The translations under genes were made by a program, and so were the position numbers. Shown in pieces: positions 12,850-46,496 of a stretch of 54,982 bases of DNA. The notes beneath the pieces were generated by a model that worked only from the letters and a program-made list of their open reading frames with translations, searched no databases and was not told the DNA's origin. The DNA is from Eubacteriales bacterium (lineage in GTDB: Bacteria > Bacillota > Clostridia > Oscillospirales > UBA644). The number at the start of each line of letters is the position of its first letter. Positions within the stretch are counted from its first letter, which is position 1. The DNA lies in NCBI GenBank assembly GCA_045652445.1, contig JAZRUJ010000067.1, positions 1 through 54,982 on the forward strand. The letters run 5' to 3'.

Positions 12850-12878
12850 ATTATACCATACACGACTCCGCGTGTCAA
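12850..12878 (-). promoter_or_regulatory. sigma-70 type promoter of the S10 operon
   Basis: The minus strand reads TTGACA (12878-12873), a 17-nt spacer, then TATAAT (12855-12850). Both hexamers match the consensus perfectly. Confidence 0.75.
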
Positions 12879-19781: not shown

Positions 19782-19858
19782 GGGGATATAGCTCAGCTGG
19801 TTAGAGCGTTCGCTTCACATGCGAGAGGTCATGGGTTCGAGCCCCTTTATCCCCACCA
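19782..19858 (+). tRNA. tRNA-Val (anticodon CAC), CCA encoded
   Basis: Manual cloverleaf. Acceptor GGGGATA/TATCCCC and D-arm GCTC...GAGC. Anticodon stem TTCGC/GCGAG with loop TT-CAC-AT. T-arm ATGGG-TTCGAGC-CCCTT with one U-U mismatch. Discriminator A followed by CCA. Confidence 0.88.
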
Positions 19859-26976: not shown

Positions 26977-27050
26977 GCAGGTGTAGTTCAATGGTAGAAC
27001 TCCAGCCTTCCAAGCTGGCCACGGGGGTTCGATTCCCCTCACCTGCTCCA
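26977..27050 (+). tRNA. tRNA-Gly (anticodon UCC), CCA encoded
   Basis: Manual cloverleaf. Acceptor GCAGGTG/CACCTGC and D-arm GTTC...GAAC. Anticodon stem CCAGC/GCTGG with loop CT-TCC-AA. T-arm GGGGG-TTCGATT-CCCCT. Discriminator T followed by CCA. Confidence 0.92.
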
Positions 27051-41405: not shown

Positions 41406-42170
41406 ATGAACTATAAAATCGGAAAACGGTATTTTTCTTCCAACGGAATCCTTATTCCCGCCATTCTTATGATTGTAGTCGGGAGCCCTTTCCTCTATAG
41501 CTTTTTGATGGCAATGTTTTCCCAAGGGAAAGGATCGTGGCTCGAACTTTTCTCTGCATTTGCATCCAATCCCGAAGAAGCTCTCGCTCTTTCTTGGATA
41601 TTCGTTCTTTGCTTGGGACTTCCTCTCTGCGGAATTCTGATGCTTGTGTTCCGACTCATACGCAGAGTTTCCGACGAAGGTTACGAACAAGCCATCGCAC
41701 AATACCCTCAAGACCTGGTCCTTCGGGCGCGAAAAGCCCTTTCATTTCCCGAAACCGAAGAATTGAAAGCACCTGCCATGATTTTTGAAGACTTTCAATA
41801 TCACGACGTGGGGGAAGTGAAGAAAAACCAAGGTTTGGTACGAACGGATTTGTACCAAAAATCCGCAGTGCTTTTGGCCGAACAGAATCTGAACGTCTAC
41901 TCCCTCACCTTCCGTACCGTCAAGCAGGAAGAATCGGTCAACGTCGAATCGATTCCCTATCGAGACGTAGTTTCGGTTACCTTTGCCCAAACAAACGAAT
42001 TTTTGCGGTCGAATCCCATTTGTATCAAAACCGTGGAAATCGCCACCGCATCGGGAAAGGTTATCAAACTTCCCTACCGTTGCAATGACAAGGCGGAACA
42101 AGACGTGAAAACCATTCGACAAGCAGTACAAGAGAAAAAATCCGCTACGGAGAATGGTGCAGTATGCTGA
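41406..42170 (+). CDS. hypothetical membrane protein (2 N-terminal TM plus soluble domain)
   Basis: 254 aa with a GGAGG RBS. No family recognised. Confidence 0.55.
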   Translation: MNYKIGKRYFSSNGILIPAILMIVVGSPFLYSFLMAMFSQGKGSWLELFSAFASNPEEALALSWIFVLCLGLPLCGILMLVFRLIRRVSDEGYEQAIAQYPQDLVLRARKALSFPETEELKAPAMIFEDFQYHDVGEVKKNQGLVRTDLYQKSAVLLAEQNLNVYSLTFRTVKQEESVNVESIPYRDVVSVTFAQTNEFLRSNPICIKTVEIATASGKVIKLPYRCNDKAEQDVKTIRQAVQEKKSATENGAVC

Positions 42171-43335: not shown

Positions 43336-43368
43336 CGTCCCTTTGATTTCTCAAAGGGACGTTTTTTT
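43336..43368. terminator. bidirectional intrinsic terminator
   Basis: CGTCCCTTTGA-tttc-TCAAAGGGACG followed by T7, with an A-run on the other side. Confidence 0.85.
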
Positions 43369-44290
43369 AGTCTTGTTTTTTGTGTCTCAGCAAAGCAATC
43401 GCCGTCAGCCCGCCGCAGAACAACAGGGCAATTCCACCGGAAATCAAGCCCAGGGTCAAGGGGGTGAAACAGATCTTTTTCGGAGTTTCGTCGGTATGCT
43501 CCGTAGAAGAAGCCGTCCATTGGGACGTCATCTCCGTAGCATCGTCAGTATCCGTCACGTCGGTAACGTCCGTCTCGTCCGAAACCGTATGGGTAGACGA
43601 ATCGGAAATGGGGAAGTTGGTTTCCGTATCGGTCACGTTCTCGCTGTCGGTCACGTTAGATTGGGTGTTGGAATTCGGTTTTTTGGTGGAGGTCGCCGGA
43701 GGAGTAGAAGATACGGGAGGAGCCGGTTCCGAAGAAACGGGAGGTTCCGGTTCGGAAGACACCGGCGGTTCGGGATTCACCGGCGGTTCGGGATTCACAG
43801 GAGTTTGCTGCAAATTTACCGTCAACGGTGCGGGTGCAGCACAATCCACAGGGGTATTGTTAAAGGTTACAAACTTTTGCACGCTCACAGAAATCGTTAC
43901 CGATGTAGCATTGGGATCAACAATCCGAAAAGGCATGGTAATCACAACGCCGGCAGCCGTAATATCGGACACGCCGCCCCCGGCAATCGTAAGACTTCCC
44001 GTGCTGTTCCCGGTAGAACTGGGAGCCGCGTAGATCATAGGCTTGGAAGTCATATCCGGGTCAGCCGTCAGCTGAACTGCGTTTTTATCGTAAGATACGT
44101 TAAACGTAAAGCCCCCCCACGTCAAATTATCAGGGAATGCAAGGCTGACGGTAAATTTCCCATCGGCAATTACTCCGTGGGAGAGGGTCAAAGCTCCGGC
44201 GGCAGAGGAGGGACGGACAAACGACAGCCCCGCAGTCATCACCATTGCAATACAGACAAAGAACGTAAAAATTCTCTTCATCATAATCAT
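43367..44290 (-). CDS. membrane-anchored cohesin-domain protein (putative anchoring scaffoldin)
   Basis: Signal peptide, then a cohesin-like beta-sandwich (GKFTVSLAFPDNLTWGGFTFNVSYDKNAVQLTA...GVVITMPFRIVD). A PxxPEP linker follows, including two perfect 18-nt tandem units at 43760-43795. Next comes a Thr/Asp-rich region, then C-terminal TM LGLISGGIALLFCGGLTAIALL with RHKKQD. Confidence 0.72.
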   Translation of the reverse strand: MIMMKRIFTFFVCIAMVMTAGLSFVRPSSAAGALTLSHGVIADGKFTVSLAFPDNLTWGGFTFNVSYDKNAVQLTADPDMTSKPMIYAAPSSTGNSTGSLTIAGGGVSDITAAGVVITMPFRIVDPNATSVTISVSVQKFVTFNNTPVDCAAPAPLTVNLQQTPVNPEPPVNPEPPVSSEPEPPVSSEPAPPVSSTPPATSTKKPNSNTQSNVTDSENVTDTETNFPISDSSTHTVSDETDVTDVTDTDDATEMTSQWTASSTEHTDETPKKICFTPLTLGLISGGIALLFCGGLTAIALLRHKKQD

Positions 44291-44302
44291 TGTAATCCTT
44301 TC

Positions 44303-45049
44303 TTATCCTTCTACCGGGAAAATACTGTTTAAACCTACTACTCGTTGTAAAATCAGCATAGCATCGTAAATAGAGATTTCGGATTCTCCCGAAACTTTCG
44401 CAGAATTGATATGATATTCATCAAAGCTTTCCGTTCCGACGATATACTGCAACACTAACATCGCATCGTAAATATCCACGCCGTCCCCGGTCAAATCCCC
44501 ATATCGAAAAGGATTGTTTGCATTGGACAGATGCACCACGGGGGTAGATTCGGGGGAAAAGGCGGTGTAGTCCTGCAGTTTTTTGCCTTTGCTGTCGGTC
44601 AGGTGGGAAACGCACAGGTGATACCCCATCTTGGCTTTCGCCAAATCTTTGACGGTAAAGGCGAAAACGACGATGGCTCCGTCGGTAGTAGTAACTTTAT
44701 AATTGGGGGTTGCCACGGAGGCGATAAAATTTACGTATCCGAGAGCGTTGGCAGATGCCACGTCCCGGCTTCCGGTCATAATGTCCACGTTTTTTCTTCG
44801 GGCGGCACCGATTTTCCCGCCGTCGGTCACCGAAATCAAGGTCAGAGCCGTGGTATCAAACTGAATCCCCAGATCCAGGGAAGTCCAATTCAAACCGTAG
44901 GTATAAACCTCAACCGTCAAATGATTTTTGGCTTCGTTAAACTGGGGTCGCATATACAAAGACGGGACTGCAGGGGCGGCGGAGGTGAAACAAGGAACCA
45001 AGGTGAGAATCAAAACCGTCGTTAAAATGACGGACAGTATTTTTTTCAT
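44303..45049 (-). CDS. secreted cohesin-dockerin adaptor protein
   Basis: Signal peptide MKKILSVILTTVLILTLVPCFTSA. Cohesin-like domain (LTVEVYTYGLNWTSLDLGIQFDTTALTLISV...GAIVVFAFTVKD). C-terminal dockerin repeats are GDLTGDGVDIYDAMLVLQYIVG and a degenerate SGESEISIYDAMLILQRVVG. Confidence 0.72.
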   Translation of the reverse strand: MKKILSVILTTVLILTLVPCFTSAAPAVPSLYMRPQFNEAKNHLTVEVYTYGLNWTSLDLGIQFDTTALTLISVTDGGKIGAARRKNVDIMTGSRDVASANALGYVNFIASVATPNYKVTTTDGAIVVFAFTVKDLAKAKMGYHLCVSHLTDSKGKKLQDYTAFSPESTPVVHLSNANNPFRYGDLTGDGVDIYDAMLVLQYIVGTESFDEYHINSAKVSGESEISIYDAMLILQRVVGLNSIFPVEG

Positions 45050-45050
45050 C

Positions 45051-46427
45051 TTATCCCTCCCCAATTGCCGATGCAGAGGGCAACCCCTTGCCGGTCAAAT
45101 AATCAATCATCGCCTGAGCGTCGTTGCGGTCTACCGTTCCGTTGCCGTCCAGATCGGCTCCTTCCCGTTGACGACGGGTCAAATGAGAGCCGGACGCAAT
45201 CCCTTGCAAAAGAACCGTTACGTCACCGGCGGTCAAGACCCCGTCTTTATCCAGATCTCCTCGGGGGAGTCGAATCATGGAAAAAGATCGGGATTGATCC
45301 CCTACCGTGACGGTGGCGGTATATTGCCCCTCTTCCGGGGCAGAATAACGCAACGTATAAGACGAAGGCTGCAACACTTGATAAACCATGTTTTCATTGA
45401 GCCAAGAAACGGTCATTTCCGTCATATCCGGCGTAACCCCGTCATAAAAATAGAAGCGGTCTTCCGGCAAAGAAACCTGCAATACCGATAAGGTATATCC
45501 CAAATGAATCCACCCGGTCTTTGCCGTTCCGTTGGCAGTATAAGTCGTCTTCCCCCACCCGGCGGAAACTTGGGTAATGGTCAAAAGGGTCCCGTGGGGA
45601 ATAGACGTAAGAACCCCGCTGTTGGTGTTGGGCTGGGAACGAAGATTCAATCCGGACGTTCCCGTATTGACCCGAACCTGCCCCGCCTGATACTCGGGAA
45701 CTTCTTCTGCGGGGGGCGTATACGTCCCCGTAGATTCGGGATAATTCACCGGAAGATGAACGTACTGAATTCCGCAGGACTTGTATTTTTGAGTCAGTTC
45801 TTCCCAGGTCCAATACCAGCAGTCCACCTGACAGGCGACCCCGGTATTGGCGTGATAGACGTATAACCCGTTGTCGTCGGTGGAAAGAACGATAAAGGAA
45901 TGCTTGTTGGTTGCTCGGACGTTTGCACCGGTTTTTACGTTTTTAAACAGGTTTTTCACGTTGGCAACGGTCATTTGGGTAGGAGACAAAGACCCCAAAG
46001 AATAAAACTTGTCCGCATTTTGAGGGTGGGAATACTCCCGATCCACAAAGCCGAACAGTTTGTAAAACATATAGTGGGCAAATGCCATACATTGGGAAGA
46101 ATACAAACGAACTTCTTCCCCGTTTTTTTCCGGGTCGTAGTAGGTATTGATACAATCGCAATCGTCGTTGTAATTACAGGTGGCGTGACAAGTGCAGGCT
46201 TTCCCCGTGTCGGAAAAATAAGAACCCACGGGGTACTCGGAGAAAACAACGTCCAACCGCCGGGCAACGGCGGCGTTATCGGTAAAGGTACCCCCGTTTC
46301 CCTTGATTTGCTTGATAACCCCTTGAGACGGATAAGAAAAATAGGGAGAAAACAACGCAAGACCCACCACGGACAGCACCACGAGAATGCTGACGGCGGC
46401 ATAAAAAATCCGAACCCGGCAAGTCAC
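45051..46427 (-). CDS. dockerin-bearing protein with Cys-His hydrolase-like domain and SH3b domain
   Basis: GTG start and an N-terminal hydrophobic segment. A Cys cluster CTCHATCNYNDDCDC precedes SSQCMAFAHYMF...NKHSFIVLS...YHAN, which is CHAP/NlpC-like. The SH3b-like region is GLNLRSQPNTNSGVLTSIPHGTLLTITQVSAGWGK. The canonical dockerin is GDLDKDGVLTAGDVTVLLQ...ADLDGNGTVDRNDAQAMIDYL. Confidence 0.68.
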   Translation of the reverse strand: MTCRVRIFYAAVSILVVLSVVGLALFSPYFSYPSQGVIKQIKGNGGTFTDNAAVARRLDVVFSEYPVGSYFSDTGKACTCHATCNYNDDCDCINTYYDPEKNGEEVRLYSSQCMAFAHYMFYKLFGFVDREYSHPQNADKFYSLGSLSPTQMTVANVKNLFKNVKTGANVRATNKHSFIVLSTDDNGLYVYHANTGVACQVDCWYWTWEELTQKYKSCGIQYVHLPVNYPESTGTYTPPAEEVPEYQAGQVRVNTGTSGLNLRSQPNTNSGVLTSIPHGTLLTITQVSAGWGKTTYTANGTAKTGWIHLGYTLSVLQVSLPEDRFYFYDGVTPDMTEMTVSWLNENMVYQVLQPSSYTLRYSAPEEGQYTATVTVGDQSRSFSMIRLPRGDLDKDGVLTAGDVTVLLQGIASGSHLTRRQREGADLDGNGTVDRNDAQAMIDYLTGKGLPSASAIGEG

Positions 46428-46467
46428 GGCAAATTTCCCCCTCTCTTAAATTTATAATACACTTTTC

Positions 46468-46496
46468 ATTATAACAAGCAAACTCTCCCCTGTCAA
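46468..46496 (-). promoter_or_regulatory. sigma-70 type promoter of the cohesin-dockerin operon
   Basis: The minus strand reads TTGACA (46496-46491), a 17-nt spacer, then TATAAT (46473-46468). Confidence 0.72.

Follow-up and report, generated by a model that had tools for sequence, protein, structure and literature searches.

We examined a window of 54,982 nucleotides (positions 1 to 54,982 of the forward strand of contig JAZRUJ010000067.1, GenBank assembly GCA_045652445.1, from a Eubacteriales bacterium of the Oscillospirales), in which three tightly packed minus-strand open reading frames (ORFs), here designated g1, g2 and g3, lie between a sigma-70 promoter and a bidirectional terminator. 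Cohesin–dockerin systems rely on specific, high-affinity and usually calcium-dependent binding between the two kinds of module, and all three genes encode proteins that carry at least one of them. As argued below, the operon probably specifies a self-contained, three-tier cohesin–dockerin apparatus that would display a putative murein hydrolase at the cell surface. The operon comprises the following features:

46468..46496, minus strand: sigma-70 promoter, TTGACA-17-TATAAT with extended TG, matching 12 of 12 consensus positions
45051..46427, minus strand: g1, predicted secreted payload, 458 amino acids, GTG start
44303..45049, minus strand: g2, predicted monovalent adaptor, 248 amino acids from ATG, with signal peptide, cohesin and dockerin
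43367..44290, minus strand: g3, predicted membrane anchor, 307 amino acids, with signal peptide, cohesin, stalk and C-terminal transmembrane helix
43335..43362, both strands: bidirectional intrinsic terminator, stems of 12 bp (plus strand) and 11 bp (minus strand), each followed by a T-run

A preliminary description of the locus had reported three minus-strand genes separated by gaps of 1 and 12 nucleotides, a perfect promoter and a terminator closing the operon in both directions; all of this agrees with the ORF list and the sequence. The GTG start of g1 has GAGAGGGGGA just upstream. The ATG of g2 falls one base past the g1 stop codon, with its GGAGG ribosome-binding site inside the 3′ end of g1, and g2 appears to be translationally coupled to g1; the mechanical ORF list puts the g2 start at a TTG at 45064, the ATG being the start that is conserved in orthologs. 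The 12-nucleotide gap between g2 and g3 precedes a start with AAAGGA ahead of it. The promoter occurs in exact form at four further places in the window (the five copies starting at 12850, 19117, 25432, 26931 and 46468), and sites with at most one mismatch number 10 against 0.17 expected; because of these five exact copies, we regard the operon promoter as real but not special, consensus promoters being a habit of this genome. The terminator hairpin scores on both strands and is common to the operon and a convergent gene of the diacylglycerol-kinase family (DAGK). Within the window, dockerin repeats are confined to g1 and g2 and matches to the cohesin profile to g2 and g3.

Each protein was resolved into the domains listed here, all on the minus strand:

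46326..46427: g1 residues 1–34, predicted N-terminal signal peptide or possibly an uncleaved signal anchor, with about 22 hydrophobic residues after an Arg-rich n-region
45708..46322: g1 residues 36–240, domain not covered by Pfam, with a predicted papain-like fold (AlphaFold2, Foldseek, conservation)
45495..45656: g1 residues 258–311, SH3_3 (Pfam 37.2 bits, E 3.4e-9; cut-off 27 bits)
45273..45482: g1 residues 316–385, probable immunoglobulin-like (Ig-like) beta-sandwich spacer, with faint Big_13 and Filamin matches only
45096..45260: g1 residues 390–444, canonical two-repeat dockerin with asymmetric helices (Dockerin_1 E 1.8e-7)
44534..44968: g2 residues 28–172, cohesin (Pfam Cohesin, PF00963, 24.0 bits against 24.1)
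44342..44503: g2 residues 183–236, atypical dockerin (Dockerin_1 20.4 bits against 22.9)
43805..44197: g3 residues 32–162, divergent cohesin (as an excised domain, Pfam Cohesin 21.3 bits, E 3.4e-4)
43469..43804: g3 residues 163–274, Pro/Thr/Ser/Asp-rich stalk of 112 amino acids (T21, P18, S17, E11, D10)
43388..43468: g3 residues 275–301, C-terminal transmembrane helix, 27 hydrophobic residues followed by the tail RHKKQD

The clearest of the interaction modules is the g1 dockerin, which scored 31.7 bits against the Dockerin_1 (PF00404) cut-off of 22.9 and matched dockerins of known structure in the Protein Data Bank (PDB), with the double dockerin 8x39 best (E 3.8e-9), alongside 2y3n and 1ohz. 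We took as canonical a calcium loop in which positions 1, 3 and 5 are D or N and position 12 is D, with a helix after each loop; on direct reading, the two 12-residue D-x-D-x-D/N-G loops of g1, DLDKDGVLTAGD and DLDGNGTVDRND, conform to this pattern, in agreement with the two-repeat dockerin of the preliminary description. The remainder of g1 runs, in order, from a signal sequence through the Pfam-uncovered domain and an SH3b domain to the spacer that precedes the dockerin. SH3_3 (PF08239) scored above its gathering threshold, was present, like Dockerin_1, in 30 of 30 g1 homologs, and matched the SH3 domain of a cell wall hydrolase (PDB 2kq8, E 0.005); it is likely to be a cell-wall-binding module. 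Big_3 occupies the position of the Ig-like spacer in distant relatives. Pfam found no glycoside hydrolase and no carbohydrate-binding module in g1, as expected of a payload that had been described as other than a glycoside hydrolase; on this count g1 does not qualify as a cellulosomal enzyme.

In g2, the Pfam Cohesin model was matched by 7 of 12 orthologs. An AlphaFold2 model of g2 had an overall predicted local distance difference test (pLDDT) score of 65.8, rising to about 70–90 in the cohesin part, and when it was searched against the PDB with Foldseek the top 33 matches were all cohesins (E 8e-6 to 3e-3), led by a cohesin from Clostridium perfringens (2jh2) and then the ScaC cohesin of Ruminococcus flavefaciens (5lxv), the latter being also the best PDB match of g2 by sequence. 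We assign residues 28–172 to the cohesins, with a predicted fold resembling the nine-stranded jelly-roll of solved cohesins.

The dockerin of g2 departs from the usual form. Dockerin_1 was matched by 10 of 12 orthologs (best E 7.2e-9), and the ScaB dockerin of Acetivibrio cellulolyticus (4uyp_B) matched it by sequence (E 2.8e-6) and in the fold search (38% identity, template modelling (TM) score 0.72). In the window copy, loop 1 reads DLTGDG-VDIYD, which at 11 residues is one short and has Thr at position 3, and loop 2, KVSGESEISIYD, has Lys at position 1; across the 12 orthologs that position is Lys or Arg and never Asp, so repeat 2 is degenerate throughout. Neither loop therefore has the canonical form. 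The two helices, YDAMLVLQYIVG and YDAMLILQRVVG, are near-identical (YDAMLxLQxxVG), and elsewhere they vary in parallel, as in the relative L001 with YDALLIMQ..VQ and YDALLVMQ..VN. Parallel change of this kind is the behaviour of internally symmetric dockerins. Orthologs, fold and alignment thus uphold the earlier account of g2 as a signal peptide, a cohesin and a dockerin with a degenerate second repeat.

The third protein is harder to recognise. Searched whole, g3 gave no usable Pfam or NCBIfam match, only low-complexity noise (TonB, GltJ), and a word-indexed search for g3 homologs returned just three matches; orthologs were instead taken from the loci around g1 homologs. Cohesin was matched by 8 of 12 of these orthologs (best E 1.8e-7). 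A profile of the domain found only cohesins in the PDB, with 7uvg ‘Coh5’ first (E 0.0023), which was also the sole match of a single-sequence search (E 0.032), and hhalign aligned it with the g2 cohesin profile at 97.5% probability (E 6.5e-12, 15% identity). We consider g3 residues 32–162 to be a cohesin, homologous to that of g2. Together with the composition of the stalk and tail, these results sustain the proposal of a cohesin-like domain, a stalk and a C-terminal anchor.

The mode of anchoring was read from the C-terminus. The window g3 has neither LPXTG nor (S/P)PXTG: FTPLTLG precedes its hydrophobic stretch, and at the position of a sorting motif the window has TPLTLG and L001 SPLTLA. 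PPSTG (L009, L010) or PISTG (L012) stands before the C-terminal helix in some orthologs (alignment columns about 400–406) and is not conserved. The sequence (S/P)PXTG is a sorting signal of clostridial sortases, which PPSTG and PISTG resemble, and covalent wall anchoring may occur only in some g3 lineages. Anchoring of the window g3 through a ScaE-type sortase signal was rejected, as no conserved sorting motif was present; for the same reason we take g3 to be a membrane anchor of type I and not a demonstrated sortase substrate. No sortase TLxTC signature was found in the window. Within the stalk, the motif TDTETNFPISDS (g3 residues 220–231; 43598-43633, minus strand) is kept in most orthologs, and candidate roles for it are glycosylation, wall contact or processing.

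The preliminary description had proposed looking for the cassette in related genomes, and the three genes were found together wherever the contig reaches. All 30 g1 homologs, each with SH3_3 and a dockerin, came from metagenome-assembled genomes (MAGs) of uncultured Clostridia or Eubacteriales, and those with a named source were mostly from the ruminant gut. The order g1-g2-g3 was kept in every locus in which g1 was at least 42% identical and the contig long enough, a set that amounts to about 12 distinct MAGs of uncultured gut Clostridia. Across these loci the g1–g2 junction is a 1-nucleotide gap or a 4-nucleotide overlap, and the reading frames remain intact at g1 identities between 43% and 100%. 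Below 40% g1 identity there is no adaptor gene, and in two-gene variants at L018:7336-8568 and L024:2254-3978 the g1-like dockerin enzyme is paired directly with a membrane-anchored cohesin protein. The gene after the enzyme encodes, in L018, a signal peptide and a cohesin (34.2 bits) followed by two cadherin-like domains and a transmembrane helix, and in L024 a signal peptide, an F5/8-type-C domain, a cohesin (35.7 bits) and a transmembrane helix. The region from L020:6311 onward looks like the same two-gene variant.

Public gene calls missed g3 at L001:8147-9121 and L004:8134-9156, where wrong-strand ORFs run through the stalk instead. The gene was thus absent from the records of two of the three relatives examined, because of its low-complexity stalk, and cohesin anchors of this type are probably under-annotated and under-counted.

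To establish which modules bind each other, we compared module divergence across 11 orthologous cassettes by partial Mantel tests controlled for divergence of the g1 catalytic domain. The strongest pair was the g2 dockerin with the g3 cohesin (partial r 0.74, p 1e-4), followed by the g1 dockerin with the g2 cohesin (0.58, p 0.007) and the g2 dockerin with the g2 cohesin (0.32, p 0.075); the g1 dockerin and g3 cohesin showed no such relationship (0.01, p 0.53). A comparison of L008 with L009 localised an exchange. Their proteins show 89% identity for the catalytic domain and 82% for the g2 cohesin, against 54% for the g2 dockerin and 35% for the g3 cohesin. In the DNA alignment, the values are 76-90% from g1 through the g2 cohesin and 65% over most of the g2 dockerin; from the end of that dockerin through the g3 cohesin and stalk they lie at 41-56%, and the g3 C-terminus is again 81-83% identical. 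The aligned DNA identity delimits a mosaic block:

L008:6948-7980, corresponding to window 43481-44503: L008/L009 mosaic block

The stalk motif TDTETNFPISDS falls in a segment that is still 81-83% identical between the two despite the swapped cohesin. At least two types of g2 dockerin and g3 cohesin exist, one in the window, L006, L008 and L010 and the other in L001 and L009, and they cut across the g1 phylogeny; the g1 dockerin is similar across both types of g3 cohesin.

Given this co-variation and the joint replacement in L008 and L009, the g2 dockerin and g3 cohesin travel as a unit, which supports binding of the adaptor to the anchor through that pair. That the g1 dockerin binds the g2 cohesin is suggested by elimination, by the conserved translational coupling and by the weaker correlation between them. 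Two very different dockerins, together with cohesins at 15% identity, would fit two distinct specificities. The hierarchy of payload, adaptor and anchor advanced in the preliminary description is accordingly better supported in its adaptor-to-anchor half, where co-variation and co-swapping agree, than in its payload-to-adaptor half, for which the correlation is weaker.

The N-terminal domain of g1 (residues 36–240) matched nothing in Pfam or NCBIfam. An exhaustive HMMER search of 1.84 billion proteins recovered 308 cluster representatives (50% identity) at E≤1e-3, and no Pfam model covered any of 10 short family members. From 30 aligned homologs, AlphaFold2 produced a confident model (pLDDT 93, predicted TM score 0.90). 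Its leading PDB fold matches, though weak, were all papain-like: the CHAP lysin Ly7917 came first (E 0.066, probability 0.95), followed by C39 peptidase domains, MepS, another NlpC/P60 protein, tegument deubiquitinases, calpain and Tae2. In BFVD, a set of predicted viral structures, the leading weak matches comprised endolysins along with CHAP proteins (E about 0.02, with probabilities as high as 0.98). These papain-like matches were weak throughout, with E≥0.019 and TM≤0.43.

Candidate catalytic residues are Gln112-Cys113 (46089-46094), His176 (45900-45902) and Asn194 (45846-45848). In the model, Cys113 opens a long helix, His176 starts a strand and Asn194 lies just past the next strand, positions that fit a papain-like (clan CA) cysteine hydrolase, in which the nucleophilic Cys begins a helix packed on a beta-sheet with His and Asn or Asp on neighbouring strands. 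Over 182 family members Gln112 is 93%, Cys113 95%, His176 99% and Asn194 96% conserved. A second set of residues, Cys78, His81 and Cys199, is about 90% conserved at each position over the same members. With Cys80, Cys84, Cys90 and Cys92, which are 59-76% conserved across the family, they belong to a Cys/His cluster (residues 78–199; 45831-46196, minus strand) flanking a loop without regular secondary structure. Such a cluster is not a feature of classical CHAP domains, and it might bind a structural metal or form disulfides.

Partner domains and neighbours give an indication of the substrate. Among 98 family representatives, SH3_3 was the commonest partner (24), followed by Dockerin_1 (21), with SLH, PG_binding_1 and ChW also present; Ricin lectins, LRR_5 and Flg_new likewise partner g1-like domains. 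A true CHAP-dockerin gene precedes the g1-like gene in L019, and a gene for a transglutaminase core (Transglut_core) with a dockerin lies upstream of the g1-like gene in L020. L037:994-8165, from an uncultured Clostridia MAG, encodes three consecutive dockerin proteins, namely a dockerin/Peptidase_M14 carboxypeptidase, a GH24 phage-type lysozyme-Big_3-dockerin and, last, a g1-like-Ricin-Big_3-Big_2-dockerin protein. Because the partner domains and these dockerin-tagged wall enzymes point there, we infer that the substrate of g1 is peptidoglycan.

The preliminary description had proposed a peptidase or amidase as payload. The confident model, the papain-like and CHAP fold matches, weak as they are, and the conserved Cys-His-Asn set speak for this, whereas the sequence-level tests for CHAP failed. 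The profile search that it had suggested returned SH3_3 and Dockerin_1 in g1 and the cohesins and dockerins of the orthologs, but neither CHAP nor NlpC/P60 in g1. Membership of CHAP (PF05257) or NlpC/P60 (PF00877) by sequence profile was rejected for residues 36–240. Our reading is that the domain represents a new, divergent family of predicted papain-like hydrolases that resembles CHAP or NlpC/P60 and cannot be filed as either, and its most likely activity is that of a peptidoglycan amidase or endopeptidase.

Taken together, these observations suggest the following arrangement. The anchor g3 would be exported and kept in the membrane by its C-terminal helix, with the stalk of about 110 Pro/Thr/Ser/Asp-rich residues taking its cohesin outward through the cell wall. 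Into this cohesin the atypical, internally symmetric dockerin of g2 would plug, and the g2 cohesin would in turn receive the canonical dockerin of g1, a putative secreted cysteine hydrolase of divergent papain-like (CHAP/NlpC-P60-like) type with a Gln-Cys...His...Asn active site and an adjoining SH3b domain. A murein hydrolase would thereby be tethered on the outside of the producer's wall. Its targets might be the producer's own outer wall layers, neighbouring bacteria or wall debris. We hold this three-tier surface display to be probable, well short of certain.

Several results weigh against it. The window scores of the g2 and g3 cohesins lie under the Pfam gathering thresholds, and confidence in the g2 model as a whole is modest. 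With both of its calcium loops non-canonical, ordinary calcium-dependent folding of the g2 dockerin is not assured. The correlation between the g1 dockerin and g2 cohesin drops to r 0.34 (p 0.08) with a broader proxy for phylogeny and does not exceed the correlations that each of the two modules shows with the Ig-like domain of g1. The N-terminal hydrophobic segment of g1 might be an uncleaved signal anchor, AXA-type cleavage sites being clearer in its orthologs than in the window copy. For the catalytic domain, Foldseek returned nothing at E≤1e-3 (best E 0.066 in the PDB and 0.019 in BFVD), and a permissive Pfam search (E up to 10) found CHAP in 1 of 32 family members, weakly (E 0.068). A 32-sequence profile retrieved no CHAP, NlpC/P60 or other papain-like chain from the PDB; its top match there, parvalbumin, was judged spurious as a relative. 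Alignment to a true CHAP domain with hhalign reached a probability of 7.8%, in a short alignment that does, all the same, pair His176 and Asn194 with the H...E-x-N block of CHAP. No phage relatives of the domain were found by tblastn against 50,697 phage genomes or in a scan of IMG/VR.

Of the alternatives, the one that survives best is that the cassette plugs into a larger system as one of its branches, the remaining scaffoldins and dockerin proteins having their genes elsewhere in the genome; the system would be of the type of a cellulosome, an amylosome or a ‘lyticome’ (a cohesin–dockerin assembly aimed at bacterial instead of plant walls). Distant g1 relatives carry dockerins with no cohesin gene nearby, some relatives (L037, L019, L020) are part of a succession of dockerin proteins, dockerins occur in 21 of the 98 family representatives, and our view of the genome is limited to 55 kb. 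What makes such a branch doubtful, although still a serious possibility, is that within those 55 kb no dockerins lie outside g1 and g2 and no cohesins outside g2 and g3, that the numbers balance at two dockerins and two cohesins, and that the three genes are inherited together with their coupling conserved.

It is less likely that, with the assembly otherwise as described, the payload acts on something other than peptidoglycan, whether as a papain-like protease, transglutaminase or acyltransferase working on host, dietary or own-surface proteins or as a non-catalytic binding module. Catalysis is argued for by the near-invariant Gln-Cys, His and Asn, and a wall substrate by SH3b as dominant partner domain, by CHAP lysins and endolysins as best structural neighbours, by the alignment of the His/Asn block with the CHAP H...E-x-N block and by the dockerin-tagged CHAP, lysozyme and M14 carboxypeptidase among neighbouring genes. 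The idea nevertheless draws on the lack of sequence-level CHAP or NlpC/P60 membership, on a fold that also houses the proteases, deubiquitinases and transglutaminases seen among the weak matches, on Ricin lectin, LRR_5 and Flg_new partners typical of adhesins and on the Transglut_core-dockerin gene that adjoins one relative.

Still less support attaches to a different wiring, in which g1 docks directly on g3 and g2 self-associates into chains or competes for, or regulates, occupancy of the anchor. Two-gene relatives do pair the enzyme with a membrane cohesin protein in the absence of an adaptor, the g2 and g3 cohesins are homologous, and the g2 dockerin shows a partial correlation of 0.32 (p 0.075) with the g2 cohesin; yet the g1 dockerin does not co-vary with the g3 cohesin (r 0.01, p 0.53) and stays similar across both types of it, whereas no pair co-varies more strongly than the g2 dockerin and g3 cohesin (r 0.74, p 1e-4), which were exchanged as one block between L008 and L009. 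We judge this wiring improbable. That chance similarity or decayed genes underlie the sub-threshold matches, with three of the four cohesin or dockerin scores in the window under their Pfam cut-offs, is effectively refuted by ortholog matches above threshold, 33 consecutive cohesins in the fold search, an hhalign E of 6.5e-12 between the g2 and g3 cohesins and frames that stay intact and conserved from 43% to 100% g1 identity.

The surroundings of the operon are unexceptional. Flanking genes have housekeeping functions (a BrkB-family protein, DAHP synthase, prephenate dehydrogenase, a DAGK-family kinase and glutamine synthetase III) and are syntenic in relatives; with GC content flat at about 0.50, a mobile element or island was ruled out. 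The interval from glutamine synthetase III to the DAGK-family gene contains a gene for a predicted membrane protein of 254 amino acids without a Pfam match (41406-42170, plus strand). Neither Rfam nor tRNA scans detected an RNA element in or beside the operon, and the sole Rfam or ARAGORN matches in the window were tRNA-Val(CAC) at 19782-19858 and tRNA-Gly(TCC) at 26977-27050, both on the plus strand.

Among published systems, the closest is RflaF_05439 of R. flavefaciens, which has two NlpC/P60 modules and an X-dockerin and is reported to bind the cohesin of sortase-anchored ScaE (PMC3573020; PDB 4EZY). It shares with g1 a module of papain-like cysteine-peptidase type recognisable by structure only, a C-terminal dockerin and a surface-fixed partner with a single cohesin. 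It differs in belonging to a plant-fibre cellulosome with more than 200 dockerin proteins and in docking directly on ScaE, which is sortase-linked (LPXTG), from genes that do not form a dedicated operon. Here, the catalytic family is another one, without a Pfam model (4EZY was not in the top 50 fold matches), and SH3b, an intervening adaptor and a membrane-helix anchor lacking a sorting motif are united in one conserved three-gene operon. Among monovalent adaptor scaffoldins, the ScaC protein of R. flavefaciens (5lxv) resembles g2 in its signal peptide, single cohesin, C-terminal dockerin and length of about 250 amino acids; ScaC switches specificity inside a large cellulosome, whereas g2, as far as visible, serves a single payload, and the shortened loop 1 and degenerate loop 2 of the g2 dockerin set it apart.

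Dockerin-bearing wall hydrolases have been discussed before. The ‘lyticome’ idea was floated in a review (PMC6403190), rumen metagenomes have yielded lysozymes and carboxypeptidases that carry dockerins (PMC6487960), and a cellulosomal lysozyme of R. champanellensis is among the cases considered (PMC6403190, PMC6487960). The likeness is in the bacterial target of the assembly, and the dockerin-tagged row in L037 is similar; those cases, however, are single enzymes on fibre-degrading cellulosomes or unlinked ORFs from metagenomes, and the lyticome has been a concept and not a defined locus, whereas here a dedicated anchor–adaptor–enzyme operon lacks any glycoside hydrolase. The claim in the preliminary description that a complete cassette displaying a putative peptidase or amidase was not a characterised system was therefore somewhat overstated, since a dockerin-borne NlpC/P60 module that binds ScaE had been published (PMC3573020) and both dockerin-bearing wall hydrolases and the lyticome idea had come under discussion (PMC6403190, PMC6487960).

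Other reduced or non-cellulosomal systems are more distant. ClcC/ClcD of Cellulosilyticum lentocellum, a characterised minimal two-gene cohesin/dockerin pair with cellulases (PMC13487519), is likewise highly reduced, with adjacent genes and single cohesin and dockerin modules; it consists of two components with cellulases, as opposed to three tiers with a membrane anchor and a payload that is not a carbohydrate-active enzyme. The amylosome of R. bromii uses cohesins and dockerins outside cellulose degradation (PMC4611034), as do the glycosidase/toxin pairs of C. perfringens (2jh2, 2w1n), which are non-cellulosomal and supply the best fold match of the g2 cohesin; both differ from the present operon in their glycoside hydrolase payloads (GH84, GH33, GH13) and in having no dedicated operon with adaptor and anchor. 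Hydrolases of the CHAP-SH3b type (Ly7917, PDB 5d76, and staphylococcal-type autolysins) share with g1 an N-terminal Cys-His papain-like domain followed by SH3b and are its top structural neighbours, yet no relationship is visible at the sequence level. In g1 there is an extra Cys/His-rich insertion, and a C-terminal dockerin replaces or adds to retention by wall binding. New here are the dedicated, conserved three-tier operon without a glycoside hydrolase, the membrane-helix anchor, a catalytic family not covered by Pfam and the co-swapped specificity block.

A bolder interpretation would make the operon a dedicated, stand-alone lyticome whose sole task would be to present murein hydrolases of a new class outside the wall of the producer itself, aimed at neighbours (contact-dependent lysis) or at debris (scavenging), with the interface between the g2 dockerin and g3 cohesin under diversifying exchange that would give each strain a private docking specificity. 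We regard this as unlikely on present evidence.

These findings have practical and biological implications. Low-complexity stalks hide anchors of the g3 type from gene callers, which is a warning for annotation. Relatives that share g1 and the g2 cohesin at about 80–90% while carrying two types of g2 dockerin and g3 cohesin amount to a natural specificity experiment, and the two types point directly to determinants of specificity, which designer scaffolds could exploit. The g1 domain defines an extracellular Cys-His-Asn family that has no Pfam model and is often fused to SH3b or a dockerin. If our interpretation of the operon is correct, the so far conceptual lyticome would gain a concrete, testable locus, and an anchor–adaptor–enzyme arrangement could take the form of a compact, vertically inherited operon for a non-carbohydrate enzyme in non-model gut Clostridia.

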